The notes under the pieces are model-generated. The model was given only the letters and a program-made list of their open reading frames with translations. It had not been told where the DNA came from and made no database searches. A stretch of DNA of 64,000 nucleotides, from the sequence record OQ718158.1. The stretch is one strand, 5' to 3'. A program made the translations under genes and the position numbers. Of the stretch, positions 14,159 through 34,790 are shown piece after piece. The stretch is from Escherichia phage vB_Ec-M-J. Position 1 is the first letter of the stretch. The number at the start of each line of letters is the position of its first letter.

Positions 14159-14382
14159 TTACTGCCACTGTATATCAAGATATTAATGAAGAATTTAATT
14201 CTAAAATTGCATTTTTATCCTTTCCCGTATTGCCAGCTATTGGTGCTACGTTGAATCTTACAATCTGTGGCTTTGAAAAATACTATGAAGTACTAGATAT
14301 TGAGTACTGTGCAGATGTTTATTCATGCAACAGTGAGATTGCTATTCCTGTGCAAATCGACATTATTGTAAAAGAGGTTTGA
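14155..14382 (+). CDS. hypothetical protein
   Basis: ATGA overlap. Confidence 0.55.
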   Translation: MITATVYQDINEEFNSKIAFLSFPVLPAIGATLNLTICGFEKYYEVLDIEYCADVYSCNSEIAIPVQIDIIVKEV

Positions 14383-14843
14383 TTATGTTTAAACACTTTC
14401 TAGTAATCACTGCTGTTGTATTCAGTACTTCCTGCTTTGTTGCACCAGTACATGCGGAAGACCAGCGTCAAACAATCAAGACGATTGGAACAGGGAAAGC
14501 CCAACCAAAACGTACTGCTGAAGAATACATGCCTGAGATGCGTGAACGTTACCGCCAGCAATACCGTGAAAAACATGCTAATGATAAGCCTATCAAAAAG
14601 CATAAATGGAATGTAGTCAAATCGCCATCGTTTTGTGCTGGGTATGCTAAGGTTAAGGATGAACAGCACAACAAACAGTACTATAAAGATATGTACACAT
14701 TCTATGATTCGAGGATCTCGGATGATGACATGATGGCTGCTAAGGTTGATAAAGAAGAATTTCTTCAGGGTTATGACATGACCGATGATGACAAGATCAT
14801 GGAATGTGTTGAAGTATATGAAAAATACAGAGGTTTTGAATGA
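14379..14843 (+). CDS. hypothetical secreted protein
   Basis: ATGA overlap; signal-peptide-like N-terminus ending VHAEDQ. Confidence 0.6.
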   Translation: MIMFKHFLVITAVVFSTSCFVAPVHAEDQRQTIKTIGTGKAQPKRTAEEYMPEMRERYRQQYREKHANDKPIKKHKWNVVKSPSFCAGYAKVKDEQHNKQYYKDMYTFYDSRISDDDMMAAKVDKEEFLQGYDMTDDDKIMECVEVYEKYRGFE

Positions 14844-15283
14844 CACTTTTGCTGATTCTAGGTTTATTAGTGTCATATTTCATTTTTCTTAACATCTTCT
14901 CTGATGCATCACATTTTGCATATGCTTCAGCTATTGCAAAACACGAAGGGATAAAGAAGTATATTCCTGCATTGTTATTCTCATATATGTACCATCCAAG
15001 GTACTTTACACTAGGTGTGTTTGACAAGTATGTATACGACGAAAAAGCACTCAATGAAATTGAATACTTTGTAAGAACTCATGCTAATAACAATCCAAAA
15101 TCATTAATTAACTTTACTGATAATCGCAAACGTGTTAGTATTAGAAGTGACTTGTATCCTACCAGTCACTTTCATCTAGGCGATTGTAGTGTGTACAGGG
15201 TTAGATACGAAAACTTACTGTTACCACCATCACATATAAGATACATAGAAAAATACTTGTTGAAATGTGTTGACTCCAAATAG
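14840..15283 (+). CDS. hypothetical membrane-associated protein
   Basis: ATGA overlap; N-terminal hydrophobic helix. Confidence 0.55.
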   Translation: MTLLLILGLLVSYFIFLNIFSDASHFAYASAIAKHEGIKKYIPALLFSYMYHPRYFTLGVFDKYVYDEKALNEIEYFVRTHANNNPKSLINFTDNRKRVSIRSDLYPTSHFHLGDCSVYRVRYENLLLPPSHIRYIEKYLLKCVDSK

Positions 15284-15336
15284 TAAATGGCAGTATAATA
15301 GCTTCGTACCGCAATAACTGACAAGAGGATTTAACG

Positions 15337-15795
15337 ATGGACGTATTAGCTACTCAATTCAAACGCAACGCAGAAGAACGTGAAGGTTACCTAAGTATCA
15401 GTGAAGTGGTTGAAGATGGATTCAAGCAGTACATTTTCAACAGTGCAATTAAACTGAAGCCAACAAAAGATTCACCGGACCGCAGCTTCACCAAGTGGAT
15501 TGCATTCTGGGAAGAGTCACCAATTGCAATCGAAATGACTGTCATCACTACAGTACTGGAAACTGGTTACATCAAAGCAATTGTAGTTGATAAGAAAGTT
15601 CGTACTCTTGATGAAATCGGGACATACCCAGCACGTAACTCTAAAGTATTTGGGTGTTTAGTTGATGGTAAGTTTATGATTGAAAAAGATGCTAAGAACT
15701 ATGTAATTGATAAACTACAAACCAGTGCTACTAAACAGGAAGTCGTAGACCAGAACGCAGTGGATGCTATTAAAAAGGCATGGGGTCTGAAATAA
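15337..15795 (+). CDS. hypothetical protein
   Basis: AGAGGA SD. Confidence 0.6.
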   Translation: MDVLATQFKRNAEEREGYLSISEVVEDGFKQYIFNSAIKLKPTKDSPDRSFTKWIAFWEESPIAIEMTVITTVLETGYIKAIVVDKKVRTLDEIGTYPARNSKVFGCLVDGKFMIEKDAKNYVIDKLQTSATKQEVVDQNAVDAIKKAWGLK

Positions 15796-16217
15796 TGTTC
15801 ACACTTAGCAATGCAAAGTATCTATTTCTTATTGCTATTATTGGTTGGGTGATGGCTCCAGTGCTTAATGCACTGGGGTTTCCAGACGGACATAAACTTG
15901 TAAATGTTTCAGGTGTAATCCAGGGCATTTCATGGTATTCATTGATTATATTTTCTATATGTATTCATACATTTGCACGTGATCACCGCCGTCTGCTTTT
16001 TGTTAAAGTATTCGGTACTAAGAGATATAGTTTTGTGTTTACATTTATTTTAATACCATGTATTATCTATGCTTTTGTATTTGATTACTATACTTATCTG
16101 TGGGTGTGTGGTTCTATGTTTGTTATGTTGGAATATACAAGAACTGTTCAAAACTCATATGCTGATGAGTATTATGATCTTGAAGTTAAACGAAAATTAA
16201 CGGAGCTAAACAAATGA
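15795..16217 (+). CDS. hypothetical membrane protein
   Basis: TAATG coupling; multiple hydrophobic segments. Confidence 0.55.
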   Translation: MFTLSNAKYLFLIAIIGWVMAPVLNALGFPDGHKLVNVSGVIQGISWYSLIIFSICIHTFARDHRRLLFVKVFGTKRYSFVFTFILIPCIIYAFVFDYYTYLWVCGSMFVMLEYTRTVQNSYADEYYDLEVKRKLTELNK

Positions 16218-16639
16218 GGGGATACAATAAGATTTGTATTTTTGTATTTTTAGTTTGTGCAATCAATACATTTGGATATTACTGTACTGAAAACAACATT
16301 TCATATGGTTTAAATCCTTTGTGGTTTACAATTGCCAATGTAGCACAAATTGGTATTGCTGTTATGTCTGCACTTATGTTCTGTCCAATTGTCACTATGG
16401 ATACTGATCATGAAAGGCTTGGATTTATCCGTGATACTGGAGACGAACCTTACAGTAGATTGATTGTGTTGTATCCATTTATTGTTATTTTAGGTACTAA
16501 CATCCAACTTGGGTCTTTATCTAATAGTGTTACTTCAGCAGCCATTACAGTCTTTGCATTCACATTTTTTATGGTACACAAATCAGTACTCAAATGGCAC
16601 ATCACCAAAATGGCAGAGAAAGGTACGGAAAACAGTTGA
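16214..16639 (+). CDS. hypothetical membrane protein
   Basis: ATGA overlap; multiple hydrophobic segments. Confidence 0.55.
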   Translation: MRGYNKICIFVFLVCAINTFGYYCTENNISYGLNPLWFTIANVAQIGIAVMSALMFCPIVTMDTDHERLGFIRDTGDEPYSRLIVLYPFIVILGTNIQLGSLSNSVTSAAITVFAFTFFMVHKSVLKWHITKMAEKGTENS

Positions 16640-16664
16640 CGTGAGTTATTGAGAGATATATAAT
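16636..16664 (+). promoter_or_regulatory. sigma70-like promoter
   Basis: TTGACG-N17-TATAAT. Confidence 0.55.
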
Positions 16665-16698
16665 TATTACATCAAAACTGGGAAATGGTAAGGAACTT

Positions 16699-16950
16699 AT
16701 GAACATCGATAAGGTCAAAGAACTTAGTGAAGCACTAATTAAGAACGAAGAAGCTTGTGAAGAACTTCGCAGTACTATCAAAGTTGAGTACGCACGTCTT
16801 CAAGCTATGCTTCAGGAATCCGAATGGGTTGTAACTAAATCTATCGAAGCAATCTATAAGGATATCGAATCCCTTTTCAACAAGAAAAGTAAGATTGAAT
16901 CTGATTCATATAACAAACGTAAAGAGTTATCTACTGCACTTGGTATCTAA
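16699..16950 (+). CDS. hypothetical protein
   Basis: AAGGAA SD. Confidence 0.55.
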   Translation: MNIDKVKELSEALIKNEEACEELRSTIKVEYARLQAMLQESEWVVTKSIEAIYKDIESLFNKKSKIESDSYNKRKELSTALGI

Positions 16951-16956
16951 AAGTAT

Positions 16957-16985
16957 TTGACTTAACCAATAACATGGAGTACAAT
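16957..16985 (+). promoter_or_regulatory. sigma70-like promoter
   Basis: TTGACT-N17-TACAAT. Confidence 0.5.
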
Positions 16986-17024
16986 GTGCTCCTAATTTAA
17001 TTATCAGCTAAAAAGGAAAACATT

Positions 17025-17285
17025 ATGAAATCTATTCTCGTTGCAGTTAACCTGGTTGCTTCCCCATCTTTTAACTTCAAACAAGTTGTTGCTGATAATC
17101 TGAAGAAGATCTGTCCAAACGCTGAATTGACTTTCTGTGTGTTTGATTCAGAAAAAGTAACTAAAGTTGATCTAAACTATCTTTTGAACGAAGTACAAAG
17201 TATTTCTGGTGAAAGTAGTTTGGAAGTACTGAATACGGTTGCTGATGACTATGATGATACACTGGTAATTTCGGAGAAATTCTAA
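17025..17285 (+). CDS. hypothetical protein
   Basis: AAGGAAA SD. Confidence 0.55.
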   Translation: MKSILVAVNLVASPSFNFKQVVADNLKKICPNAELTFCVFDSEKVTKVDLNYLLNEVQSISGESSLEVLNTVADDYDDTLVISEKF

Positions 17286-17290
17286 ATCCA

Positions 17291-17710
17291 ATGCTTAGAT
17301 TTATACATTACTTAATCAGTAAGTTCTTTGGTTATTATACTATTGAAGGTAAAGCTACGCTTGCACATAAAATCTTTGTAGCATTATGTGTGGGTGATTA
17401 TGACGTATTGAATAAGCACTGTAAATCTAAAGCATGTATTGACATAATGGCACTTCGTATCTATGAGTGTCAGTTCAATAGATATAATTTTTACCAGTAC
17501 AGATATGATAAAGATGATTTTGATAGCATTAAAATGCTAAAGAATTTATGTAATAATAAAAAGAATATGCATATATCTGAATTTGTTGCATTGTATTTTT
17601 ATTTAAAAAGTTCATTATACATGAATACACTACAACGCTTCGATACTAGAATTAATGTATTCAACGATAAAGAATTTTATATCTATGATAAATTTTTAGA
17701 TAAGGTTTAA
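17291..17710 (+). CDS. hypothetical protein
   Basis: 139-aa ORF. Confidence 0.5.
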   Translation: MLRFIHYLISKFFGYYTIEGKATLAHKIFVALCVGDYDVLNKHCKSKACIDIMALRIYECQFNRYNFYQYRYDKDDFDSIKMLKNLCNNKKNMHISEFVALYFYLKSSLYMNTLQRFDTRINVFNDKEFYIYDKFLDKV

Positions 17711-17711
17711 T

Positions 17712-18209
17712 ATGACAACTGTTTATATTGATAAACGCTTGGGAGTATTACTTACTGATTCAAAAGTGACATCAACTGAGCAACGTTCATTTTTGAACCT
17801 ATTCCCGTTGAAGCCAAAACTTAGTTATGGTGTAGTTTCACAAAAAACATTGTATGTACACGACCGACTGTTTAGTGCTTGCGGTGAGGTTAGTGAAATT
17901 AACAAAGTACTGAGATACTTGATTTCACAAGAGACTGTGATACCAGACCGCAAGGCGAGTTGTCACTGTGTTCTTGTGTCAAAAGATTACATCATTCACT
18001 TAATCGTTAATAAGGGTAAGTTTACCAAGAAGATTGATTATCTCCATAATGATTATACATTCTTTATGGGTAGTGGTGGTGAATACATGCTTGATGCAGC
18101 AGTACATGAAGAGTATAATACTCTTCTTGATAAGGTATTTGATACCTTCATGGATGTTCATAACCATGATATCTATACCGATGATAATATTAATGTATAC
18201 CGTTTTTGA
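17712..18209 (+). CDS. hypothetical protein
   Basis: 165-aa ORF. Confidence 0.55.
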   Translation: MTTVYIDKRLGVLLTDSKVTSTEQRSFLNLFPLKPKLSYGVVSQKTLYVHDRLFSACGEVSEINKVLRYLISQETVIPDRKASCHCVLVSKDYIIHLIVNKGKFTKKIDYLHNDYTFFMGSGGEYMLDAAVHEEYNTLLDKVFDTFMDVHNHDIYTDDNINVYRF

Positions 18210-18231
18210 TTTCATTCATTAGGAGAAGTAA

Positions 18232-19200
18232 GTGAAAAAGCTTGATTTAAATGCAATTTCTGAAGAAGTACTGGATGAGTGTTTTGCTAGTGAAGAAGTC
18301 AACGTATTAGAGGCTCTTGATTCCGTAGAAGAAGAAGAAGAACATGACGGTCACAAGTTTGAGAAACCAAAAACAGGTATCAGCTTAACTCGCCCTAAAG
18401 GGATAACGAATGAAATGCTCATCCAAGCAGTGCGTGATGGCATAGACGTTAAAAAGAACATTGACCTTTTGGTTCGCTACAACTATCCAATGGTAGTAAG
18501 TGTTGCACGTAAGTGTACATGTTTTATCCCATTTGAAGATAAGATTTCTTATGGTGTTGAAGGTTTAATGCGAGCAATTCATACGTTCGACACTACCAAA
18601 AATGTTAAGTTCATTACATATGCAACAACAACTGTGTACATGACAATCTATAACGAAAGTGCAGATGCTAATTATCTAGTGCATTTCCCACGTTATATGA
18701 GTGTTAATAACATTTATGTGAAACGTTGTGTTGAAGAGTATCAAAGGAAACATGGTAAATACCCAACTCCTGAGATGGTGTCAAAAGAGACTGGTATTGA
18801 GATTCAACACGTTAAGAATTGTCTAACTTACAATAACACTTATGTAGCATTGAATATGAAAATGAGTAATGATTCAGAAAGTACATTATCTGACATTGTT
18901 ACTTCAGTTGAACCTGATTACAACTTAGGTGTAGAAACTGTCAGTACCCCACTGGTACAAAGTATTGCAGAAATGATGAGTAACCTATCTACCAAAGACC
19001 GTGAATTGATTGAACGTGTACATGGTATTGGTTCTTATTCTGAACCAGAAACGCTACGAGAAATCATTGAGAGTGGTTTTGAAGATGAGAAGGGTAAGGT
19101 CATGACTGCTCGTTCTTCATTGCACCGTAAGTACTCTGAAGCAATGGAACGACTGCGTAAGATGGTTAAGACAAAAGGTTATGAGTTCGAAGATTTTTAA
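18232..19200 (+). CDS. RNA polymerase sigma factor, sigma-70 family (phage-encoded)
   Basis: GTG start after AGGAGAAG; region-2-like GVEGLMRAIHTFD...KFITYATTTVYMTI and region-4-like LSTKDRELIERVHGIGSYSEPETLREI; acidic N-terminus. Confidence 0.6.
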   Translation: MKKLDLNAISEEVLDECFASEEVNVLEALDSVEEEEEHDGHKFEKPKTGISLTRPKGITNEMLIQAVRDGIDVKKNIDLLVRYNYPMVVSVARKCTCFIPFEDKISYGVEGLMRAIHTFDTTKNVKFITYATTTVYMTIYNESADANYLVHFPRYMSVNNIYVKRCVEEYQRKHGKYPTPEMVSKETGIEIQHVKNCLTYNNTYVALNMKMSNDSESTLSDIVTSVEPDYNLGVETVSTPLVQSIAEMMSNLSTKDRELIERVHGIGSYSEPETLREIIESGFEDEKGKVMTARSSLHRKYSEAMERLRKMVKTKGYEFEDF

Positions 19201-19207
19201 GATTAAA

Positions 19208-19236
19208 GGGTTGACTTCGGTCAGCCCTTTTTTTAT
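19208..19236 (+). terminator. intrinsic terminator (PeSL-like hairpin lacking the -10)
   Basis: gggttgacttcggtcagccc UUCG-loop hairpin followed by T7. Confidence 0.65.
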
Positions 19237-19239
19237 GGG

Positions 19240-19760: not shown

Positions 19761-19769
19761 TAAAAGTCC

Positions 19770-21668: not shown

Positions 21669-21947
21669 ATGTCTTTTACCAAAGAAGAACGTGACCTTAT
21701 TAAAAAAGCAATCTGGTTTTATGCTAATGAAGGGGAGTGCGATGAAGAAAAAGCACGTGAACTGTGTAATATCCTTGAGCAGAAACAAGAACTGAAAGTT
21801 TATCGTATCCGTGTTTTGGATGACGGGGATCGTATTGTCCTAGCTGAAACAAAAGAAGAAGCAGAACAAATCTTCACTGATAAAAACGAAAATCCACATT
21901 GGATGGAAGAAGTCTGTGAAGTAAAAAAAGGTACTTATATCGATTGA
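21669..21947 (+). CDS. hypothetical acidic protein
   Basis: 92-aa ORF downstream of promoter. Confidence 0.6.
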   Translation: MSFTKEERDLIKKAIWFYANEGECDEEKARELCNILEQKQELKVYRIRVLDDGDRIVLAETKEEAEQIFTDKNENPHWMEEVCEVKKGTYID

Positions 21948-21972
21948 CTGTACTGAATAATAGCAGTATAAT
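21945..21972 (+). promoter_or_regulatory. sigma70-like promoter
   Basis: TTGACT-N16-TATAAT followed by gtttatatcaaa. Confidence 0.55.
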
Positions 21973-22065: not shown

Positions 22066-22374
22066 ATGTTTCAAACTAACACTCAAGGTTTTGTAATCAT
22101 CGATTTGAATCAAAACAGCGGTTATTGGATGAAACCTACTGACGCATGTATGCAGTTTGATTTTTTAGGTTACAGGATTAGTGTAAGTACTGGTGCTTCT
22201 GTACTGCGTGGTGGTTGTATCGTTGAACATCTGGTAACTGATCCAGAAGGTCGTGAGTATGAAATCGCAGGTTCAGTACAAGATGCCATTATGTTTGTAT
22301 GTCAGCGTGAAATGAATAGTTCGAATTCAAATGCACTGACTCATGCTCTTTCTCAAGAAGTGGAGGTTCGTTAA
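22066..22374 (+). CDS. hypothetical protein
   Basis: GAGGAA SD. Confidence 0.6.
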   Translation: MFQTNTQGFVIIDLNQNSGYWMKPTDACMQFDFLGYRISVSTGASVLRGGCIVEHLVTDPEGREYEIAGSVQDAIMFVCQREMNSSNSNALTHALSQEVEVR

Positions 22375-22625
22375 TGAAATATATCGTAGCAGTACTCGTT
22401 GCATTTTTACTCACTGCATGTGACGCTTCAACCAAAGAACGCACAAGTGATTTTATTCTCCCTATTGAATTACAAGAAGCAGGATGTAAGATTTATCGTA
22501 TGCAAAAGGATGGTGCTGGCGTAACCTTGTATACAGTTTATTGCCCTAATGCAAATACCAGTACTGGATACAGCAGCGGTAAAACACGAATCAATACTTC
22601 AGTGATTAATGGAGTACAACAATGA
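22374..22625 (+). CDS. putative lipoprotein
   Basis: TAATG coupling; signal peptide with lipobox LLTAC. Confidence 0.6.
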   Translation: MKYIVAVLVAFLLTACDASTKERTSDFILPIELQEAGCKIYRMQKDGAGVTLYTVYCPNANTSTGYSSGKTRINTSVINGVQQ

Positions 22626-22990
22626 GCCTTGATACAACCCGTGCAACAGATTTATTAACTCGTATGAATAATGAAGAATTTCTTGCTGAAATAAAGTACA
22701 AGCTTGAAAAACTGGCACGAAGTGCTGAAGTAATTGAAGTTGAAGGTCACTTACCAATGGACCAATTCCATACGTTCAACGAAGATATGGTTTATTATCC
22801 AAATGAAATTTGGATTGAGTGGGAGTCATGGACTAACAAAACTCTACGCATTGAAGGTTATTGTGTGAATTATGAATCTGAACCTGGTGATGTTACAAAA
22901 ACTCTCTCCATTTGGTGTACAAAAACACATGAACTCGTTGAGGTGAATTTGAATTATATGAAAGGTTTCCGTTGGGGTGATGTTCAATGA
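22622..22990 (+). CDS. hypothetical protein
   Basis: ATGA overlap. Confidence 0.55.
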   Translation: MSLDTTRATDLLTRMNNEEFLAEIKYKLEKLARSAEVIEVEGHLPMDQFHTFNEDMVYYPNEIWIEWESWTNKTLRIEGYCVNYESEPGDVTKTLSIWCTKTHELVEVNLNYMKGFRWGDVQ

Positions 22991-25025: not shown

Positions 25026-25688
25026 ATGTTAGTTAATCTTAATTTCATCACTTCTCCTGATTGGGCATTGCGTGGTGTTTCTTTGAACTTTAAAGAAACT
25101 AATTTCGACTACATTGGTGATTGTACTTTAGTTAATGCTAAATTTGATCCTCATCATCCTTTTTGGGCTGAAATTCATGATCCTAATGTAAACAATAGTA
25201 CATCTGTTATGACTATTGTACAGACGAAACATACAGGTATCCTCGCAGGTTACAGACCAGGACATGCGATTGAACACTTCACTGATTATGATGTAGTAGA
25301 TGAGTATCCAATGATCCATGAAGATGGAAGTTTATACACGTCAGAAGACTTCCGTGCTATCTTTAATAGTACTGATGACATTCTACCAAGTGGTCGTCCA
25401 CGTCCTGAGTCTTATCTTATGCACTCGTCTTATGGTGTAGCAGATACGCTTGAACAGATTTTGACGAAGTACAAGAACCTTATTGAAGGTCCAGAAGAAA
25501 TTGTCATGTGCTATCATCCAGTACTGAAGTCTGACCAACCAGAGAGTGGTGGGTGGCGTTGGCATAAGAATGGTGAGTACATCGGTACTAAGCGTAGTAA
25601 AGAACGCTTTGAGTACTTGTATGATGAGCCAGATGTTGAGGTTGTTTTATGTTATAATTTTCTTAAGGTGAAAAAGAAATGTATCTAG
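25026..25688 (+). CDS. hypothetical protein
   Basis: 220-aa ORF with GAGGA SD. Confidence 0.65.
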   Translation: MLVNLNFITSPDWALRGVSLNFKETNFDYIGDCTLVNAKFDPHHPFWAEIHDPNVNNSTSVMTIVQTKHTGILAGYRPGHAIEHFTDYDVVDEYPMIHEDGSLYTSEDFRAIFNSTDDILPSGRPRPESYLMHSSYGVADTLEQILTKYKNLIEGPEEIVMCYHPVLKSDQPESGGWRWHKNGEYIGTKRSKERFEYLYDEPDVEVVLCYNFLKVKKKCI

Positions 25689-25921
25689 TATTGAGTTTTG
25701 TAGTTGCATTATTGTTTATGTTCTACCCTACACTAGTAGCAGTAGCCACTAAACGAAAGCTGGTGGATATCACTACTGTATTCTTGCTAAACGTGGCACT
25801 CGTTCTAGTGTCTATTATAATTCCCGTGAGCTTTACGGTTATTGATATGGCATCTGTATTACTATTCGTCTTCAGTTATCTTATGCTTATTGAAGAAAAA
25901 CCTGTTGACAAACGTTTGTAG
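25679..25921 (+). CDS. hypothetical membrane protein
   Basis: Two hydrophobic helices. Confidence 0.5.
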   Translation: MYLVLSFVVALLFMFYPTLVAVATKRKLVDITTVFLLNVALVLVSIIIPVSFTVIDMASVLLFVFSYLMLIEEKPVDKRL

Positions 25922-25932
25922 TACTGTATAAT
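25905..25932 (+). promoter_or_regulatory. sigma70-like promoter
   Basis: TTGACA-N16-TATAAT overlapping upstream gene end. Confidence 0.5.
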
Positions 25933-25979: not shown

Positions 25980-26306
25980 ATGTTATCAGTTCTAATTTCA
26001 ATTCCTGCTCTAATTCTGTTATGGGTTATGGTTTTCGAATTCTTCATTAAAGACGAAACCGAGCGTGATGAGTTTCGTGAGTTGTTTATGTTAGACTCAC
26101 CCATTGTACGAATCTTCTTCGTTGTAGTACTTATTTCAGTACTGTCATGGTTAGTAAATTTTGTATTACCAATTGGACCATTTGTTTCAATTATGAATTT
26201 AGTTGAGAACATTGTTGGTATTGTGTGGTTTACTAATGCATTGTTTGCTGGTAAAGTTTCCATTTGGTTTGATATCTTGAAAGATAAACTAACTAGTAAG
26301 AAGTAA
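25980..26306 (+). CDS. hypothetical membrane protein
   Basis: GAGGA SD; hydrophobic segments. Confidence 0.55.
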   Translation: MLSVLISIPALILLWVMVFEFFIKDETERDEFRELFMLDSPIVRIFFVVVLISVLSWLVNFVLPIGPFVSIMNLVENIVGIVWFTNALFAGKVSIWFDILKDKLTSKK

Positions 26307-26384
26307 CGTTCAAAAAGTCTCTAATAGTATTAAATACTTCTGTACAAATAATATGTGCAGAAGTATTGCTCGTTAGAGGTTATA

Positions 26385-26750
26385 ATGAAAAAATATATAA
26401 GAATGATAATGGTGTTTGTAGTATTCATGCTTTATTCAAGGTTCAGTACAGCCGTACCTGCTTACCTTGATTGTATGGGAAACGATGGAACATGGCATGT
26501 ACTTTCTAATGACCCACAAAATGGAAACAATATTGTCGTAGATAATGAGGTTTACCGTTTCAGGGCCGAGAGTTTGATTGGGAATAAAAAGGTATCGACA
26601 TATAAATCAGATGCTGGTATAATAGCAAATGTAATATTGATAGTGGACCCCAAGACAAAGGATGGGGATATTTACATAGTCATTTATCAAGATTCGTCGA
26701 ACAAACGCGATCAGGATATTGATAAATTGAATATTCATTGTGAACTGTAA
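26385..26750 (+). CDS. hypothetical secreted protein
   Basis: ATG at 26385 after AGAGG; signal-peptide-like N-terminus. Confidence 0.55.
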   Translation: MKKYIRMIMVFVVFMLYSRFSTAVPAYLDCMGNDGTWHVLSNDPQNGNNIVVDNEVYRFRAESLIGNKKVSTYKSDAGIIANVILIVDPKTKDGDIYIVIYQDSSNKRDQDIDKLNIHCEL

Positions 26751-26760
26751 GGTATAACAA

Positions 26761-27144
26761 ATGATAAACGATGTAATGCTTTATGTATTAATTACTCCGA
26801 TTCTTATTAACTCAGTAATAACTATTTCAATGGCATTATTTGGTATAGTAGCAATTGTTTATGCGGTTAGTACTGGAAAGTATACTTTAATTAGTAAGGT
26901 TGATTCATGGTTCGCATCTGATAGTGTACCATATTCAGCTAGTATGATTACGATTGGTATTCTAATCGTTGCATTTACACTGCACTGTATTGGTTTTATT
27001 AATACAAGTATTTTTTCAGTTTTTATTGGTCTATCATTATATCCATCACTTTGGTACTTGATTTATGTAATCGATGTTTGGTATAATAACTACAAGCAGT
27101 ACAAAGTGAAGAAATCCATTTTATCCAAAGGAAACAAATCATGA
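26761..27144 (+). CDS. hypothetical membrane protein
   Basis: Several TM helices. Confidence 0.55.
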   Translation: MINDVMLYVLITPILINSVITISMALFGIVAIVYAVSTGKYTLISKVDSWFASDSVPYSASMITIGILIVAFTLHCIGFINTSIFSVFIGLSLYPSLWYLIYVIDVWYNNYKQYKVKKSILSKGNKS

Positions 27145-27491
27145 AAGTAATTTTGTTTTTTGTTTGTATGATTATATGTGGTATGTCTTATGCAGAACCA
27201 TTACCTGGACTAGTCTGTACTGAAGGTGATATTAAACACATTTACCAAGGTGATAGCGATGACCATACTATCGTTTATATCGATGGTGAAGTGTATAATT
27301 TTGTTAAAGAACATACTGTAGGTGACATTAGTTTTACGCAGTACTCGAATGATACTGATCCCAATATGCTTGCATTTCTTCAAGTTGATGTATATGAAGA
27401 AAGTAATGGTGAACAGTATGTTAAACTTGTGATGATGCGTAAGGCAGCAAAACAGGCAACATTCGGTGGCTTGTGTAAATATGAGGACTAA
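27141..27491 (+). CDS. hypothetical secreted protein
   Basis: ATGA overlap; signal peptide. Confidence 0.55.
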   Translation: MKVILFFVCMIICGMSYAEPLPGLVCTEGDIKHIYQGDSDDHTIVYIDGEVYNFVKEHTVGDISFTQYSNDTDPNMLAFLQVDVYEESNGEQYVKLVMMRKAAKQATFGGLCKYED

Positions 27492-27495
27492 ACAT

Positions 27496-27687
27496 ATGTT
27501 GATTTATCAATGTGATAACATTCGTGTTATGCAGCATCCCTACTTACAAATCTTTGATGTGCAGCAGTATATGGAAGGTGATGACCCAAGAACCTATGGT
27601 CGTAAGTATGATTACTTCACTGTAAAGCAGTGTCATAACATCAAAGAAGTACGACAATTAGTTCAAGAACTTCAAAATAAAGGTTGA
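27496..27687 (+). CDS. hypothetical protein
   Basis: ATG at 27496 after GAGGA; stop overlaps -35 of next cassette. Confidence 0.5.
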   Translation: MLIYQCDNIRVMQHPYLQIFDVQQYMEGDDPRTYGRKYDYFTVKQCHNIKEVRQLVQELQNKG

Positions 27688-27713
27688 CTTCGGTCAACCT
27701 TTTTTGTTATAAT
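27681..27713 (+). promoter_or_regulatory. PeSL-like promoter/UUCG-hairpin cassette
   Basis: aggTTGACTtcggtcaacct hairpin containing the -35, T-run, TATAAT 18 nt downstream. Confidence 0.6.
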
Positions 27714-29156: not shown

Positions 29157-29381
29157 ATGAAATATCTAGTACTAGTACTGCTATTCTTGAGTACTGTTGT
29201 ATGTGCTAAACCAAAGTATCATGTAGTGTGTATCAACGAGATGGAAGGATATACTGAAACATATAAGAACCATATTGTTGAAGTTGCAGCCCAAGGTTCC
29301 TATGGGACCATCATCTTCCTTAAGAACAATGTGATTGTTCAGTACAAAAAAGATTCAAATTGTAAAGTGACTAAAAAATGA
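29157..29381 (+). CDS. hypothetical secreted protein
   Basis: Signal peptide MKYLVLVLLFLSTVVCA. Confidence 0.55.
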   Translation: MKYLVLVLLFLSTVVCAKPKYHVVCINEMEGYTETYKNHIVEVAAQGSYGTIIFLKNNVIVQYKKDSNCKVTKK

Positions 29382-29451
29382 TCTAGATCAATTTTTCAGA
29401 TATTCTCTGTAAATAATAGCAGTACAGAACATTATTTTACGGAGGTGTAAT

Positions 29452-29688
29452 ATGGAAACTATAATCATCATATGTGCGTTGTTTGCATTTTTGGTAATGT
29501 GGTCACCAACATTCATTGCATATAAAATGAAAAATAAAAATGCAGAAGCAATTATGTACGTAAACTTATGTTGCATACTAACTTATGGAATACTTTTATT
29601 CTTTACTGAATTTACATTAATCCCAGTAGTAGTTTGTTCATCAATGTTTATTTGGTTGTTTCTGCTTTATGAATCTATTAAAAAATAA
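29452..29688 (+). CDS. hypothetical membrane protein
   Basis: GGAGGTG SD; TM helices. Confidence 0.55.
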   Translation: METIIIICALFAFLVMWSPTFIAYKMKNKNAEAIMYVNLCCILTYGILLFFTEFTLIPVVVCSSMFIWLFLLYESIKK

Positions 29689-29742
29689 AAGATATAGGGT
29701 TGGTAATATGCCATCCCTTTTACTTTATGTGGGGTTTAATTA

Positions 29743-30315
29743 ATGAATAGAAAAGGTAAGTTCAAAGTATCAAAGAAGAACAAAAGTTCTAGATTTAGAC
29801 CTATAACTTTAACTTTTAAGGCTAAAGAAGAATTAACTGCACTTAGTAAAAAGATAATTTCATCTAAGATTAAAGTATCATACGTAAATTCGGTAAAATT
29901 TCAGAAGGTTAAACCACAAGACAAACTCATTTCACTTATATTTAAACGTAATGATTTTGAGATATTAGTAGATGATTATAGAGCCTATAATGCTGGATTC
30001 ATTCATGTCACTTGTAATACCGAACTAACTGAGTTGGAACATTTGACATGTATCATAAGTGTAGATAACGGTGTGGTGAAGTACAATTTTTTACATTTTA
30101 CCAATATCAATAATGGAATGGGTGTACAATCCAGACCTATAGTACCTACATGTGATGTGACTAATTTAGCAAAGCTCAATGAAGAAGAATATTTTCAAGA
30201 AAGCATTGTAACTGAGCATTTAGATGCTATAATAGCAACTTACAAAGAATGCATATGGGTTTTGAATGCGATAAAGCCCAAATTGTGTTTAATGAATGTC
30301 GTTCGTGATTTATAA
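29743..30315 (+). CDS. hypothetical protein (EE-FQ motif family)
   Basis: NEEEYFQESIV motif. Confidence 0.6.
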   Translation: MNRKGKFKVSKKNKSSRFRPITLTFKAKEELTALSKKIISSKIKVSYVNSVKFQKVKPQDKLISLIFKRNDFEILVDDYRAYNAGFIHVTCNTELTELEHLTCIISVDNGVVKYNFLHFTNINNGMGVQSRPIVPTCDVTNLAKLNEEEYFQESIVTEHLDAIIATYKECIWVLNAIKPKLCLMNVVRDL

Positions 30316-30328
30316 CTGGAGATGTAGT

Positions 30329-30772
30329 ATGGGTTGGATTAACGTTAATAGCATTGAACTAAATGAGCAAGACATATTTGCCTTTGTTAATTTGGTAGAG
30401 AACATTGCTATTAAAGGTCGTCTGTTTAGTTCATCGGACGGTAAAAAATGGATCTCTCTTATGAACGACAATGGCGAGATTTATGACGTTATGCAACTAC
30501 CTCATTGGGCTTATAAGAATACATCTGATGATGTGATGGCTGCTGTTATGCGTGAGTTTGAGAAGCTGCCAGGTGGTGATATTAAGAACATCGTATTCAA
30601 TGCAGAACGCATGAACTACACACCAGAGCAGCTTCAACAGTTGGCAATTGCTGCCTATCAAGCTGCCATTAAGAAACCTGAATGTGTGATATTAAAGTAC
30701 ACACCGAACTTGAAGTTAACACTAGAAGATATGGATTCCTTTATCTTCAGTTCAGAACTTAAACAGTACTGA
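30329..30772 (+). CDS. hypothetical protein
   Basis: ATG at 30329 after GGAGATG. Confidence 0.55.
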   Translation: MGWINVNSIELNEQDIFAFVNLVENIAIKGRLFSSSDGKKWISLMNDNGEIYDVMQLPHWAYKNTSDDVMAAVMREFEKLPGGDIKNIVFNAERMNYTPEQLQQLAIAAYQAAIKKPECVILKYTPNLKLTLEDMDSFIFSSELKQY

Positions 30773-30883
30773 TTTGACTTTGGAACAACCATTTCATATG
30801 TGATATAATCTTAAGTGTCTGTTGAAATAAACAGCACATGAAGTATAAATATTAAAGTAATTTATCTCTTTAAGGAGTATGAA

Positions 30884-31267
30884 ATGGTTGATAAATGGAA
30901 TAAGAAAGATCCATCGCATGATGTGGATATTTCTGGAATTGATAATGCACATAAGCATAAGTATCTTGATTCACTAGGTCTACTAAAGCCTGACCAAAGT
31001 CTTGCACATGATCGTCCTTCACGCGAAAAAGCTTTCAGTTTAGAATCACTAGGCCATGAATTGAATCGTGTATTTGAAGATCATCCAATTTATGTACGTG
31101 ATATCATTGAGAAACTTAAAGTGACTCCTAAAGAGCACTTCAAGGCAACAGTACACGCAGCATTCCGTGCACTACATGAAGCACTAAAGAAAACTCATAA
31201 CCTTCGTAAGATTCATGATGATATCGTGAACTCTATTGAAGGCGAAAAACATAAGTTTAAAAAATAA
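30884..31267 (+). CDS. hypothetical basic protein with SLGLL motif
   Basis: AAGGAG SD; KYLDSLGLLKP motif shared with 32115 gene. Confidence 0.6.
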   Translation: MVDKWNKKDPSHDVDISGIDNAHKHKYLDSLGLLKPDQSLAHDRPSREKAFSLESLGHELNRVFEDHPIYVRDIIEKLKVTPKEHFKATVHAAFRALHEALKKTHNLRKIHDDIVNSIEGEKHKFKK

Positions 31268-31274
31268 TTAAAAG

Positions 31275-31307
31275 GGGTTGACTTCAGTCAGCCCTTTGTC
31301 GTATAAT
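31275..31307 (+). promoter_or_regulatory. PeSL-like promoter/hairpin cassette
   Basis: gggTTGACTtcagtcagccc hairpin, TATAAT 18 nt downstream. Confidence 0.55.
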
Positions 31308-31354
31308 ATTTTCATCAAGTGATACAAAATACAAACAACGTGAGGTATTAAATT

Positions 31355-31468
31355 ATGCAAGGTACTAAATTCATCATCGCTGCCCTAATCGCTGCTGTTG
31401 TAGTGGGTACAGTATGTTATTCAATTGACACCTATATCAATACACCTAGTGTTGAACAAACCAAATAA
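31355..31468 (+). CDS. hypothetical small membrane protein (37 aa)
   Basis: GAGG SD; single TM helix; below track cutoff. Confidence 0.4.
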   Translation: MQGTKFIIAALIAAVVVGTVCYSIDTYINTPSVEQTK

Positions 31469-31476
31469 GGGATATC

Positions 31477-31740
31477 ATGGCTGAAACATTATCACTATAT
31501 GCGTTAGTACTGTTATTTGTCGGATTTCTTCCCGCACTCATTACAGCCATTCGTGTTGTTAAACATGAAGCTGCATTGATTGTATGTAGTATTGGGTCGA
31601 ACATTCTATTGTATTTCTTTTTGACAAACACTATTGTACTGTTCGCTTTCTTTATCATGATTCTGTGGGTACTTGTAATTCTCGGATTCTTCATTTGGTC
31701 ATTGGTTGATCCTAAGAAAAAAACAGGAGAAGTGAAATGA
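31477..31740 (+). CDS. hypothetical membrane protein
   Basis: TM helices. Confidence 0.55.
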   Translation: MAETLSLYALVLLFVGFLPALITAIRVVKHEAALIVCSIGSNILLYFFLTNTIVLFAFFIMILWVLVILGFFIWSLVDPKKKTGEVK

Positions 31741-32033
31741 AATTAATTATTGTAATGATGATGTTTTTGGCTTTCCCAGTACTGGCTACTCCTAATCTGG
31801 ACTGCACACTGTTGCGTTCAGATGGTGACACACTTGAAATCAACACATATGAACTCTTTGGTCCAAGTGTAGTGGAGAATGAAACCACCTACAATTTCAA
31901 AGCTATTGACTTTGAAGGTAATGTTCCAGTACTAACTACAATGACTATTGACAAAACTACTTTACTCGGACGAATCACCACACAACGCGGAGAAAGTAAA
32001 ACATTCACAGCGAAAGCTGACTGTAACTACTAA
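31737..32033 (+). CDS. hypothetical secreted protein
   Basis: ATGA overlap; signal peptide. Confidence 0.55.
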   Translation: MKLIIVMMMFLAFPVLATPNLDCTLLRSDGDTLEINTYELFGPSVVENETTYNFKAIDFEGNVPVLTTMTIDKTTLLGRITTQRGESKTFTAKADCNY

Positions 32034-32045
32034 TGGTATAGTACA

Positions 32046-32076
32046 GTGAAAATAGGGTTGACTTCGGTCAACCTTT
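32046..32076 (+). promoter_or_regulatory. PeSL-like promoter/UUCG-hairpin cassette
   Basis: ggTTGACTtcggtcaacc hairpin, TATACT 17 nt downstream. Confidence 0.55.
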
Positions 32077-32114
32077 TCTTTATACTATAAATATAGTCAT
32101 AGAGAATAAACAAT

Positions 32115-33626
32115 ATGAAATCTATGGAGAGAAATCAAATGCCAGGTCAATTTACTGATAAAAATGGCGGGAACATGGCAGGTCACTCTGATAAATGGAG
32201 TGAACGCAATCGTCGTCAAAATAGCTACCAAGCAGGACAGGGGTCACGTGGTTCACGTAATCAAGGGACAGGTTTAGCTGGTAAGGCAAACGCAGAAGCA
32301 GGTGAAGTTAAGAGTACTGAGAACATGACTGAGCTAGAAAAGCTACGTTATGTTAACTCATTAGGTCTTCTTAACGCAACACAGAAACAACGCCTTGCTG
32401 ATATGGAACGTGCTGAGAAAGAACAAGAAGTTCCTAAAGAAGAACCAAAACCAGAAGCTCCTAAAGCAGCTAACCCTGTTAAAGAGTTATCTGATAACTT
32501 AGGTAAGATCTTTGCTAACAAACCACAGTTGATTCAGGGTATTGTCAAAGCACTACAGGCAGTTCCTAAAGAAGAACTCAAAGGTAAAGCACAAGCTGTA
32601 CTTGATGCAATGAAAGGTAATAAGAGCACTGAACCTACTGAAGTATTCAGTACTATCATGCGTGCACTTGAAGGTACACACAAAGAAGATTCCAAAGAAC
32701 CTGAACAGGGTGAAGCAAGTCTTGATGGTATTCTTAAAACTTTTGATAGTATTGGTAAAGCAGACCGTGCTAATGCCCAGCAAGTCAAGAATGTACTGGC
32801 TAAACTTGAAAACCGTTTAGAAGGTAAAGATGATAAGGTTAAGCTCGTATCAGATGCAGTTAACAGTGCACTTAAATCTTATGTACAAGGTGAGAAAAGT
32901 CGCTTCGTAACAGCTATGGATGCTGCATTCAACACTATGAAAAAGTATGAAGCAGAACATGGTGAGAAAGTGACACCTGATGGATATCTACTACGTAAAG
33001 ATGAAGAAGGTGCAGTTGAACAGAAAGATGTTGAGCCTGAGCAAGAAGATCTACCTGATACCGTTGATATGGATGGATACATTCATCGTCCTGAGATGGA
33101 AGAGTTTGGGTCAGATAAAGAAGGTTTTGAACATGCAATGGCAGTATATAAAGCATTAGTTAAAAATCCAGATTATGCTAACCGTTTTGTTGACGAGTTT
33201 GATAGTGCATGGAATAACTACAAAGAGAAAGGTTATGATTTCCCTGCTGAAGCTGCATTCTTTGAACTTGGTAAACTATTAGCTAAACATGGAATTGACG
33301 TTGGTTCATCTGATTCCGAAGGTATGGAAGAAGAACATCTTGAAATGACTGATAAATCAATTCATGAACTTCAAAAGTTAATGATGTGGATATCCGAGAT
33401 TGGTAAAAAAGCAGGTGCTGATAGTAAAAGTATCAACAAAAATATTAGTTGGATTAAAGATAATGTTGGTAACAATGCTCGTAAACTTCAAAAGGCTTGG
33501 GCTGATTTAGTAAATGGTGCAGATGATGTTGACATTGAATCACCAGAAGCATATGAGTATGCACTAACTACACTTGATAACTCATTCAAAGAGTACGACC
33601 GTGGTGTTGGAAAGGATAAAAAATAA
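32115..33626 (+). CDS. hypothetical charged Lys/Glu-rich protein (503 aa) with SLGLL motif
   Basis: Long ORF; RYVNSLGLLNAT motif; start codon uncertain. Confidence 0.65.
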   Translation: MKSMERNQMPGQFTDKNGGNMAGHSDKWSERNRRQNSYQAGQGSRGSRNQGTGLAGKANAEAGEVKSTENMTELEKLRYVNSLGLLNATQKQRLADMERAEKEQEVPKEEPKPEAPKAANPVKELSDNLGKIFANKPQLIQGIVKALQAVPKEELKGKAQAVLDAMKGNKSTEPTEVFSTIMRALEGTHKEDSKEPEQGEASLDGILKTFDSIGKADRANAQQVKNVLAKLENRLEGKDDKVKLVSDAVNSALKSYVQGEKSRFVTAMDAAFNTMKKYEAEHGEKVTPDGYLLRKDEEGAVEQKDVEPEQEDLPDTVDMDGYIHRPEMEEFGSDKEGFEHAMAVYKALVKNPDYANRFVDEFDSAWNNYKEKGYDFPAEAAFFELGKLLAKHGIDVGSSDSEGMEEEHLEMTDKSIHELQKLMMWISEIGKKAGADSKSINKNISWIKDNVGNNARKLQKAWADLVNGADDVDIESPEAYEYALTTLDNSFKEYDRGVGKDKK

Positions 33627-33635
33627 ACATTTAAA

Positions 33636-33667
33636 AGGTTGACTTCGGTCAACCTTTTTTTGTAAAT
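33636..33667 (+). promoter_or_regulatory. PeSL-like cassette (weak -10)
   Basis: aggTTGACTtcggtcaacct hairpin plus T-run; -10 only GTAAAT. Confidence 0.45.
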
Positions 33668-33697
33668 ATTGTAGAGGGTTTTATAAGAGGTAATGCA

Positions 33698-33949
33698 ATG
33701 TTTAAATATGTTTTATTTTCACTTGTATTGTTTACTGATATAGTTTATAGTACTGAATACCAGTGCTCCATTGCTAGACAGGAGTTTAGAAACGGTGAGT
33801 TCTATACCAAGTCTTACACTAGAGGATTGGTACATGACAATAATAAAACTATAGGGTTCAATGCATTTGATAACAAAGATCGATATACGTCTGGAATACT
33901 ATCTGAACGTAAGTCTGATATACTAGGTATCGAGCGTGAATTCCGGTGA
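33698..33949 (+). CDS. hypothetical secreted protein
   Basis: Hydrophobic N-terminus. Confidence 0.5.
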   Translation: MFKYVLFSLVLFTDIVYSTEYQCSIARQEFRNGEFYTKSYTRGLVHDNNKTIGFNAFDNKDRYTSGILSERKSDILGIEREFR

Positions 33950-33959
33950 CACGGTTGCA

Positions 33960-34310
33960 ATGTGTAATGATATTGAGAGTACTAAGAAAGTATATACTAA
34001 TGGTGAAAATACTTTTAGATTCCACAATCTTACTACTAATGAAAGTTTATACTTCTACAACTGTAAAGAGTTCATTAAACCTGTGGATAACTCATGTGAT
34101 ATGCCGGAGCCAAAAGCTGCTGTATGTGAGGAACCACAATCCAAAGCTGACAAAGATTCAAAAGATAAGAAAGACAAAGCTGACAAATCGGATAAAAAAG
34201 AAAACAAAAAGAAAGCTAAAGATGATAAAGATAAAAAGTCCCCTAAGCCAAATCCATTTGAAAAGCCAAAGAATGAAAAGCCAAAACCAGACATGACATG
34301 TAAAATATAA
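33960..34310 (+). CDS. hypothetical Cys-containing protein with Lys/Asp-rich tail
   Basis: ATG at 33960; low-complexity KDKKDKADKSDKK tail. Confidence 0.45.
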   Translation: MCNDIESTKKVYTNGENTFRFHNLTTNESLYFYNCKEFIKPVDNSCDMPEPKAAVCEEPQSKADKDSKDKKDKADKSDKKENKKKAKDDKDKKSPKPNPFEKPKNEKPKPDMTCKI

Positions 34311-34317
34311 AAGAAAA

Positions 34318-34350
34318 GGGTTGACTTCGGTCGGCCTTTTTTGCTATAAT
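34318..34350 (+). promoter_or_regulatory. PeSL-like promoter/UUCG-hairpin cassette
   Basis: gggTTGACTtcggtcggcc hairpin, T-run, TATAAT, conserved leader catttcatcaact. Confidence 0.6.
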
Positions 34351-34376
34351 CATTTCATCAACTACTGGAGGCAAAC

Positions 34377-34790
34377 ATGTTAAAAGTTATTTTCCGTTCT
34401 ATCAGTTCATTACTTCTTATGATTAGTTCAGTTTGTTATGCAAATGAAGTATCTGATTTATTTGAGAAGAATTACCCAACTGCACAAGAGATGGGTGTTT
34501 TAAAATGCAAGCTAACTTCGTACAACATCATCGGCAGTAAACTTGTACTAGAACATGAACGTAGTACACCAATCCCTCTAGTAGAAGAAGGTAGTACCTT
34601 TAGCTTCAAGTACGGGGTGAACGTAACATCTGGTGTAATGAACAATGTTGATGCAGAGACTGGTTCAACATGGAGTACTAGCGGTAAAGATGTGTTTCAT
34701 CGTATGCGTGAAAATGGTAAACTGAAGTACGTATATGAAAGTTCATTCATGAAACGTGTATTCATTATAAAAAATTGTGTACCAGCATAA
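34377..34790 (+). CDS. hypothetical secreted protein
   Basis: GGAGG SD; signal peptide. Confidence 0.6.
   Translation: MLKVIFRSISSLLLMISSVCYANEVSDLFEKNYPTAQEMGVLKCKLTSYNIIGSKLVLEHERSTPIPLVEEGSTFSFKYGVNVTSGVMNNVDAETGSTWSTSGKDVFHRMRENGKLKYVYESSFMKRVFIIKNCVPA

Follow-up and report, generated by a model that had tools for sequence, protein, structure and literature searches.

In a 64,000-nt stretch of Escherichia phage vB_Ec-M-J (OQ718158.1; this whole stretch is "the window" below), we found that the interval from 14379 to 34790 carries nine small genes, named here by their start positions, whose products are, to judge from their N-terminal signals and their genomic setting, very likely exported early accessory proteins. 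The interval is a packed series of about 50 small + strand genes, nearly all of which are labeled "hypothetical" in GenBank records, in a window of 32-38% G+C. Over 14000-35000, identity is 99.5% to Turkey3, 99% to fEgEco12, BF17, and WPEC5, and about 86% to 121Q and PBECO4; these relatives are jumbo myoviruses of about 350-385 kb from the RaK2-like group, with 121Q and PBECO4 being Asteriusvirus type phages. Every gene listed in an earlier, sequence-only reading of the interval is an annotated gene in relatives, and the only coordinate in need of correction was the TTG at 14379, since relatives start at the ATG 6 nt downstream, at 14385.

That reading had claimed at least nine small proteins with signal-peptide-like N-termini or lipoboxes. 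We scored the 127 gene calls of the whole window with our own heuristic, which stands in for SignalP and LipoP and weighs the charge of the n-region, requires an uncharged h-region that is 7-20 residues long and averages at least 1.9 on the Kyte-Doolittle scale, applies the (-3,-1) rule, and searches for a lipobox ([LVI][ASTVI][GAS]C closing a hydrophobic signal). In a calibration on known E. coli proteins, the heuristic scored eight of eight classic E. coli Sec signals at 4.66-6.07, placed the true cleavage site in seven of the eight, and called the right cysteine in three of three lipoproteins. Seven interval genes carry a type I signal, as cleaved by signal peptidase (SPase) I, with scores of 4.35-6.09: 14385 (VHA/ED, 5.3; the slash marks the predicted site), 26385 (STA/VP, 5.0), 27141 (SYA/EP, 5.5), 29157 (VCA/KP, 6.1), 31737 (VLA/TP, 5.8), 33698 (VYS/TE, 4.35), and 34377 (CYA/NE, 4.45). 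Two more, 22374 and 22987, carry an SPase II lipobox, LTAC in each. The claim therefore holds for nine of the ten proteins listed; the tenth, 19863, lacks a positive charge, its h-region spans about 8 residues, and some of its orthologues score about 3.9. The sole borderline candidate outside the interval, at 40213-40410 (MIKTFILTMVFGSYGYGGGVA/TVE), scores 3.8, under the threshold. Overall, 9 of the 48 called interval genes pass, compared with none among the 57 small + strand genes that lie outside it in the window (Fisher p = 5.6e-4), and since the latter have the same composition, a composition artefact is ruled out.

The export signals are also conserved as architecture rather than as sequence. 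In orthologues from 121Q, CRJP21, ph0011, JNE01, A4, RaK2, and KP13-7, the signal peptide or lipobox is kept while the signal sequences have diverged, down to 35-40% identity, and the lipobox stays as LSAC or LTGC in divergent orthologues. The family of 26385 alone uses five unrelated signal peptides, each scoring at least 4. An even, non-zero number of cysteines is found in the mature part of eight of the nine exported proteins, whereas the figure for the window's other small soluble proteins is 21.5% (p = 3e-5); seven of these eight have exactly two, and the cysteines are invariant in every ortholog alignment. Conserved even cysteines are the expected mark of domains that would fold with periplasmic disulfides. 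Together, these sequence signals make export of the set to the envelope a well-supported prediction.

To place the block in the infection cycle, we counted near-consensus sigma-70 sites (at least 11 of 12 positions) against a background of dinucleotide shuffles. The + strand of 14000-35000 holds 13 such sites, compared with 0.75 +/- 0.93 in the shuffles, while loose sigma-70-like matches are no commoner than in shuffles. All 28 near-consensus sites of the window fall on the + strand of 1-47000; the - strand has none, and neither does 47001-64000, where an array of paralogous genes lies (described below). Most lie 27-140 nt 5' of gene starts, including those of 19863, 22066-22987, 25980-27141, 31477-31737, and 34377 (Table 1). 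This excess is good evidence that the block would be transcribed early by host RNA polymerase. Around 47000, a sharp boundary separates this putative host-polymerase early block from a differently transcribed one, and the GC skew flips there. A repeated hairpin, GGTTGACTTCGGTCAACC followed by a T-run, occurs at 27679-27713, 32054-32086, and 19205-19230 on the + strand and at 33633-33658 on the - strand; its stem holds the -35 element TTGACT, with a -10 element at the right spacing at 27679 (TATAAT) and 32054 (TATACT), and by its sequence the repeat appears to be a combined terminator-promoter cassette between early transcription units.

Table 1. Predicted exported proteins, membrane proteins, and promoters of the interval (TM, transmembrane segment; a slash marks the predicted cleavage site)
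Feature	Position	Strand	Details
Exported protein, 152 aa	14385..14843	+	signal peptide MFKHFLVITAVVFSTSCFVAPVHA/EDQ; two conserved mature-part Cys; phrog_36332, a function-unknown family
Two adjoining 3-TM membrane proteins	15780-16217 and 16214-16639	+	phrog_15839 ("membrane protein") and phrog_22013
Near-consensus promoter	65 nt upstream of 19863	+	
Ambiguous case, 69 aa	19863..20072	+	short uncharged hydrophobic N-terminus MNSVIFLIIALS, kept as far as RaK2; two Cys downstream
Near-consensus sigma-70 promoter, TTGACT-17-TATAAT	21944..21972	+	before the run 22066-22374-22622-22987 (both lipoprotein genes)
Lipoprotein, 83 aa	22374..22625	+	lipobox LTA/C (Cys16), Asp at +2, two more invariant Cys; phrog_902
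Lipoprotein, 91 aa	22987..23262	+	lipobox LTA/C (Cys20), four further Cys; phrog_31263
Two small 2-TM membrane proteins	25679-25921 and 25980-26306	+	just 5' of 26385
Perfect sigma-70 consensus promoter, TTGACA-16-TATAAT	25905..25932	+	before the run 25980 (2-TM)-26385-26761-27141
Exported beta-barrel, paralogue A, 121 aa	26385..26750	+	signal ...SRFSTA/VPA; mature-part Cys7 and Cys96 invariant; conserved in RaK2
Multi-pass membrane protein, 127 aa, 4-5 hydrophobic segments	26761..27144	+	between the paralogues; phrog_31707, a function-unknown family
Exported beta-barrel, paralogue B, 116 aa	27141..27491	+	signal MKVILFFVCMIICGMSYA/EPL; mature-part Cys8 and Cys94 invariant
Exported protein, 74 aa	29157..29381	+	signal peptide MKYLVLVLLFLSTVVCA/KPK; mature part 57 aa, Cys8 and Cys52 conserved
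Small 3-TM membrane protein, 78 aa	29452..29688	+	adjoins 29157
Near-consensus sigma-70 promoter	31278..31307	+	before 31477 (3-TM) and 31737 (exported)
Small 3-TM membrane protein, 87 aa	31477..31740	+	stop overlaps the start of 31737 (ATGA)
Exported protein, 98 aa	31737..32033	+	signal peptide MKLIIVMMMFLAFPVLA/TPN; mature-part Cys6 and Cys79
Exported protein, 83 aa	33698..33949	+	signal peptide MFKYVLFSLVLFTDIVYS/TEY; one mature-part Cys
Near-consensus sigma-70 promoter, TTGACT-18-TATAAT	34321..34350	+	27 nt 5' of 34377
Exported protein, 137 aa	34377..34790	+	signal peptide ...SSVCYA/NEV; mature-part Cys22 and Cys112 invariant

Five of the exported proteins have one cysteine just past the cleavage site and another near the C-terminus, and this shared pattern had raised the idea of a single large paralogue family (26385, 27141, 29157, 31737, 33698, and 34377). 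We rejected it at the level of sequence: all-against-all BLAST, and HHalign on ortholog alignments with eight negative-control families, back only the pair 26385 and 27141 (95%), and all other pairs are at control level. These comparisons support an exported set of about eight unrelated families in which only 26385 and 27141 are paralogous. In PHROGs, most of the exported proteins fall in small function-unknown families; Pfam and NCBIfam returned nothing above threshold for them, and the sub-threshold NCBIfam hits of the lipoproteins span the signal peptide only.

The lipoprotein 22374 is a clear member of phrog_902 (E = 5e-13), a widespread family of phage lipoproteins without known function, from which it shows no difference. 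Its homologues are spread over 579 phage records, among them those of Felixounavirus, Mooglevirus, Certrevirus, and Vibrio phages, and in Mooglevirus and Vibrio phages they lie among replication or early genes. The lipobox cysteine, two further cysteines, and the signature LP.E...C.(I/V)Y...CP...GK are invariant across these homologues, and the lipobox reads L-x-[AG]-C in the Certrevirus, Mooglevirus, and Vibrio phage members. Asp at +2, which 22374 shares with its close orthologues, is a Lol-avoidance or inner-membrane retention signal in E. coli. PF16225, a precomputed domain of 22374 homologues, was not reproduced with our Pfam copy at E <= 10 and was not used. In the second lipoprotein, 22987, the residue at +2 is N (D-E in the JNE01 orthologue), and the lipobox is kept as LTGC in that 35%-identical orthologue.

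Among the remaining exported proteins, 31737 is present in fEgEco12 and JNE01 and absent from 121Q, ph0011, A4, and RaK2. The AlphaFold2 model of 34377 (pLDDT 91.5) has an N-terminal helix and a closed beta-barrel of generic type. No lipobox was found in 33698, although fEgEco12 labels its orthologue "lytic conversion lipoprotein." The gene that follows 33698 (33698-33949) lies at 33936-34310 and would overlap it by 14 nt in a different frame if it starts at a GTG; its 121Q orthologue starts 11 nt past the upstream stop, equivalent to an ATG at about 33960 here. Its product has no export signal, a cysteine-containing N-terminal part, and a long Lys/Asp-rich tail. Since 33698 and 33936 are both intact in 121Q, the split is real and no frameshift is involved.

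We next describe the paralogues 26385 and 27141, for which a fold could be predicted. The trio 26385-26761-27141 is conserved in Klebsiella phage RaK2, whose proteins bridge the two paralogues, and Cys8 and Cys94 are invariant in all members of the family (at least 22). A word-indexed search of 5.8 billion proteins found 22 clusters and limits the superfamily to this phage clade; its small members all keep the signal peptide and both cysteines. The family profile also gave marginal multi-stretch hits in three very large proteins (E 5e-4 to 8e-6), one of them a giant flagellin, with the flagellin domains at both termini, and two with weak Phage_attach hits, which may reflect a shared beta-domain or chance. 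The AlphaFold2 model of 27141 has eight strands (pLDDT 80.8, pTM 0.73), forming the eight-stranded antiparallel beta-barrel of MliC/PliC, and its best PDB match is PliC/MliC. The top structural matches are PliC, MliC, PhiA, and ACP, and other eight-stranded barrels score only slightly lower. We compared the pair with the bacterial inhibitors PliC/MliC (PDB 3oe3, 2f09, 3f6z, and 4mir) and Brucella PhiA (7dpy). MliC/PliC sequences in PDB open the barrel with Y-x-C, as shared by P. aeruginosa MliC and Brucella PliC; E. coli MliC ends in NNC and has the same arrangement of one N-proximal and one C-terminal cysteine as the phage family, in which a putative bond would join the start of the barrel to the C-terminal strand. 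A different motif, E-(S/H)-x-(I/V)-G-(N/D)-x-x-x-(S/T)-x-Y, is strongly conserved within the phage family, and the predicted strand order would place it at the beta4-beta5 hairpin. Comparison with PDB sequences also gave weak hits (E 0.05-8) to the receptor-binding domain of the CDTb/iota toxin, which were taken as chance. In a viral structure library, the 27141 model matches orthologues, one further 121Q protein, and, weakly, the "putative lysozyme inhibitor" of jumbo Serratia phage Moabite; the idea that phages carry inhibitors with this fold is thus already present in annotation. The further 121Q protein (93 aa; BFVD A0A097EXD3) has the same barrel fold as 27141 (TM score 0.70-0.73, 18% identity), so the fold may recur elsewhere in these genomes.

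The exported proteins also diverge faster than their neighbors. Median identity of exported proteins compared with neighbors is 66% and 89% in 121Q, 49% and 84% in ph0011, and 56% and 68% in JNE01 (one-sided Mann-Whitney p = 0.03-0.05), and exported proteins are missing from relatives more often than cytoplasmic neighbors. Both lipoproteins and 14385 are conserved exceptions to this trend. In phage A4 (17362-17526, compared with window 27350-27491), past the phage's own 58%-identical allele of 27141 comes a stretch of about 140 nt that matches the window-type allele at all but one position, and this remnant runs on into the shared downstream gene; we interpret it as the scar of a recent allele replacement by recombination. 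Although the statistics are modest, divergence and turnover would fit conflict-driven diversification.

The exported genes stand among membrane-protein genes. At least two hydrophobic spans are predicted in seven interval genes (15780, 16214, 25679, 25980, 26761, 29452, and 31477) and a single segment in up to four more (14840, 21107, 23474, and, more weakly, 28176), and exported and membrane proteins together would make about 40% of interval genes envelope-directed. On either side of 22374 and 22987, the genes encode no TM segment. Family searches matched the neighboring membrane proteins to no family of known function. Just beyond the interval, 3-TM proteins of about 104-123 aa form two tandem + strand arrays, at 35087-36122 (three copies) and 42730-45169 (seven copies), which widen the envelope-directed theme; the first array is paralogous (BLAST E = 4e-8 for 35087 against 35435).

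We compared the set with known phage exclusion systems. T4 Spackle (Sp, gp61.3), a periplasmic protein made early, has a cleaved signal and a single disulfide and acts as an inhibitor of the gp5 tail lysozyme (PMC7677548). Like Spackle, the proteins described here come from genes that appear to be early, carry an N-terminal export signal, and consist, once mature, of a small domain with one Cys pair (57-128 aa, compared with 75 aa in Spackle). The target class, a T4-type tail lysozyme of glycoside hydrolase family 24 (GH24), also exists in this phage group: in 121Q, a GH24 T4-type lysozyme is annotated as baseplate hub/tail lysozyme (PMC12805682), which makes a muramidase target for the PliC-like pair plausible. 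On the other hand, Spackle is an alpha-helical bundle and an allosteric inhibitor, whereas 26385, 27141, and 34377 are predicted beta-barrels without sequence similarity to it, and no PHROGs hit is annotated as Spackle. T5 Llp, a small lipoprotein that is made early and contains a disulfide, blocks the FhuA receptor, and a crystal structure of FhuA-Llp has been published (PMC9586334). Both 22374 and 22987 resemble Llp and the Cor proteins of T1/phi80 as small, putatively early lipoproteins with Cys pairs (two and four further cysteines, respectively), with timing and disulfides predicted. The match of 22374 to the Cor family phrog_1119 is marginal (E = 9.4e-4, over residues 1-49, which include the signal peptide), and 22987 has none. 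A phmmer search of all PDB chains returned no match for 22374 and chance-level hits only for 22987. Llp acts at the outer membrane, whereas Asp at +2 of 22374 favors inner-membrane retention in E. coli. In fEgEco12, the counterparts of 22374, 22987, and 33698 are labeled "lytic conversion lipoprotein." Our searches of PHROGs, Pfam, NCBIfam, and PDB sequences did not reproduce these labels, which were set aside; the fEgEco12 paper does not mention the labeled genes. Finally, the small multi-pass or bitopic membrane proteins of the interval recall T4 Imm and other exclusion membrane proteins, which sit in early regions beside periplasmic partners, as in the trio 26385-26761-27141, but no sequence relation between Imm and the window membrane proteins was detected.

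Together, these findings lead us to favor, as a probable account, that the block is an early accessory region of an Asteriusvirus-type jumbo coliphage, read by host RNA polymerase. Soon after infection, small proteins would be sent via Sec to the host envelope, seven by a type I signal and two as lipoproteins, from genes interleaved with at least seven for small multi-pass membrane proteins. The mature parts would fold as small domains, with periplasmic disulfides expected in eight of the nine. In the periplasm or anchored to a membrane, the proteins would bind envelope components of the host or of incoming phages and make the infected cell refractory, through superinfection exclusion or protection from lysis from without, as do T4 Spackle/Imm and T5 Llp. 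The favored target of 26385 and 27141 would be a peptidoglycan hydrolase, for example a GH24 tail lysozyme such as this phage group carries. The parts of this account differ in strength. That the phage re-equips the infected cell's envelope is probable; that exclusion or envelope protection is the main role is a serious candidate that falls somewhat short of likely; and inhibition of a peptidoglycan hydrolase by 26385 and 27141, suggested by the predicted fold, is doubtful. More speculative as a whole, and rather unlikely in full, is the picture in which the pair is a phage offshoot of the PliC/MliC fold, repurposed against the tail lysozymes of incoming phages as a beta-barrel counterpart of Spackle with a new recognition loop, within an exported set that would serve as a multi-target exclusion arsenal in the first minutes of infection. 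The sequence-only reading had proposed that these proteins are directed to the periplasm and act in exclusion or envelope remodeling. Its export part is borne out by the signals, their conservation, and cysteine parity; its functional part is consistent with the early promoters, the absence from the virion proteome, the remote spanins, fast divergence, the A4 scar, the PliC/MliC-like barrel, and the disulfide-type lipoproteins, and no member of an exclusion family was found by sequence.

Several observations weigh against this account. Cleavage of the signals, as opposed to their retention as anchors, is deduced from scores of a heuristic. The single cysteine of 33698 departs from the pattern of the set, the structural matches of 34377 are best to generic barrels, and the divergence tests are only marginally significant. 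In PHROGs, Pfam, NCBIfam, and PDB sequences, no exported protein is a member of the T4 Spackle/Imm, T5 Llp, or T1/phi80 Cor families. The llp and cor genes lie directly downstream of a gene for a receptor-binding protein, whereas 22374 and 22987 do not; their neighbors are small hypothetical genes, with an HNH endonuclease upstream. The Asp at +2 of 22374 gives way to N or E in more distant homologues. For the pair 26385 and 27141, an exhaustive hidden Markov model search of 1.84 billion representatives returned 14 relatives, none of them MliC/PliC; Pfam MliC gave no hit at E <= 1, and the family profile gave no MliC/PliC match among PDB sequences. HHalign of the pair against three MliC/PliC sequences gave a probability below 1%, the same as controls, and the inhibitory loop S-x-S-G-A-x-Y, which enters the lysozyme active site in MliC/PliC, is absent from all members of the phage family. 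By the models, the likeness to MliC/PliC appears to end at the fold and cysteine topology.

We also weighed other explanations of the same observations. The N-termini could be uncleaved signal anchors, giving bitopic inner-membrane proteins with periplasmic domains that act like T4 Imm or with multi-pass partners: sequence alone cannot show cleavage, multi-pass genes adjoin or overlap exported ones (26385-26761-27141, 31477-31737, and 29157-29452), and the c-regions of 33698 (VYS) and 26385 (a long YSRFSTA) are weak. However, the h-regions of 8-15 residues are shorter than a membrane span, small residues at -3/-1 recur in every orthologue despite sequence differences, and the scores equal those of classic cleaved signals, and we consider this explanation unlikely. 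That the signal-like N-termini arose by chance in an AT-rich genome, from Phe, Ile, and Leu codons, on proteins that are in fact cytoplasmic is largely refuted and the least credible of the alternatives. The low G+C content of the window and its many hydrophobic open reading frames in non-coding frames would allow it, but the 57 other small genes, which have the same composition, all fail the test, the architecture is kept in orthologues with unrelated signal sequences, cysteine parity is independent of hydrophobicity, and the lipobox cysteine is invariant across distant phage genera. Compared with these, a role for 26385 and 27141 as true functional analogues of PliC/MliC concerns the target: they would shield the infected cell from gut c-type lysozyme over the long jumbo-phage cycle, and other phages would be irrelevant. 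The top structural matches, PliC, MliC, PhiA, and ACP, all inhibit lysozymes of the host animal, E. coli MliC has the same Cys arrangement, these phages were sourced from sewage, faeces, and farm animals, and a "putative lysozyme inhibitor" is annotated in Moabite. We nevertheless hold this role to be very unlikely, given the missing inhibitory loop and the lack of profile-level similarity. E. coli has its own MliC and Ivy, which are already in place, and fast divergence with allele swapping suits a fast-evolving target better than a conserved animal enzyme.

A part in lysis or its timing, as spanin-like lipoproteins, antiholin or holin partners, or regulators, is remote. Lysis cassettes typically hold small lipoproteins and small membrane proteins, and 22374 gives sub-threshold hits to other small lipoprotein families, but those hits span the signal peptide only, no endolysin or muralytic domain lies nearby, and the promoters are of the early host type. 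Spanins were excluded as a candidate: a curated spanin census places those of 121Q/PBECO4 at gp511/gp512 (245337-246017 of 121Q; PMC6139136 supplement), a pair about 150 kb away in that genome and of unrelated sequence. It is likewise highly improbable that these are minor virion or ejected proteins with incidental hydrophobic N-termini, even though 30884 and 32139, inside the interval, are virion proteins in 121Q and phAPEC6 and the CRJP21 record names the 27141 orthologue "structural protein." From this neighborhood, the phAPEC6 virion proteome contains gp035c, gp037c, and gp077, with orthologues of 30884, 32139, and 12300-13457 present, and virion mass spectrometry of that phage did not report the orthologues gp032c, gp034c, gp040c, gp047c, gp065c, and gp074c; the orthologues of 22374, 22987, and 26385 are unannotated in phAPEC6 (MK817115.1; 8738-8986, 9354-9626, and 12672-13121) and would thus have been undetectable in its proteome search. 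Product names in CRJP21 are displaced, so the "structural protein" label is a shifted annotation. Tailed-phage virions assemble in the cytoplasm, and Sec export would therefore take a protein away from assembly. In the CRJP21 record (vB_EcoM_CRJP21, OQ708376.1), names are off by 8-9 genes: "RNA polymerase sigma factor" stands on a 477-nt gene instead of the 966-nt one, and "protein kinase" on a 222-nt gene.

The genes themselves are already in dozens of GenBank records as "hypothetical," and early phage proteins with export signals are a known kind; our literature searches found no description of this exported-protein cluster. What the analysis adds is the enrichment in predicted export signals and their conservation, the cysteine parity, the early-promoter context, and the split into about eight families, together with the PliC/MliC-like predicted fold of a clade-restricted paralogue pair and the assignment of 22374 to a lipoprotein family that is very widespread among phages. 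Jumbo phages carry hundreds of function-unknown genes, and about 20 genes of one early block can now be put in a single, putatively envelope-bound class. Should the PliC/MliC-like pair turn out to inhibit phage or host muramidases, the problem that Spackle solves would have a second answer with an unrelated structure, and a bacterial anti-lysozyme fold would be linked to phage-phage competition. Hundreds of virulent phages carry a member of the 22374 family, among them therapeutic candidates from the Felixounavirus group; since cocktail members that exclude each other lower efficacy, the target of this family would bear on the design of phage cocktails. If there is no exclusion or envelope phenotype, the finding amounts to an ordinary refinement of annotation.

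Other genes in and around the early block have recognizable products. An HslV-like protease subunit gene, as labeled in fEgEco12, lies at 17712-18209, and a phage sigma factor gene at 18232-19200. Identity of the sigma factor is 58-60% to 121Q/ph0011 and 87% to JNE01, a pattern that suggests mosaic exchange. On the - strand, 47092-63775, and also 45206-46330 and 12300-13457, contain a tandem set of at least 14 paralogues, each about 370-400 aa long and starting with MLPF(V/A)RM(F/V)(D/K)YGN, with a strong Shine-Dalgarno site before each gene. Such paralogues are named "DNA condensation protein" or "regulator of chromosome condensation" in relatives, and the phAPEC6 virion proteome holds several "DNA condensation" proteins of about 40 kDa (gp003-gp010).

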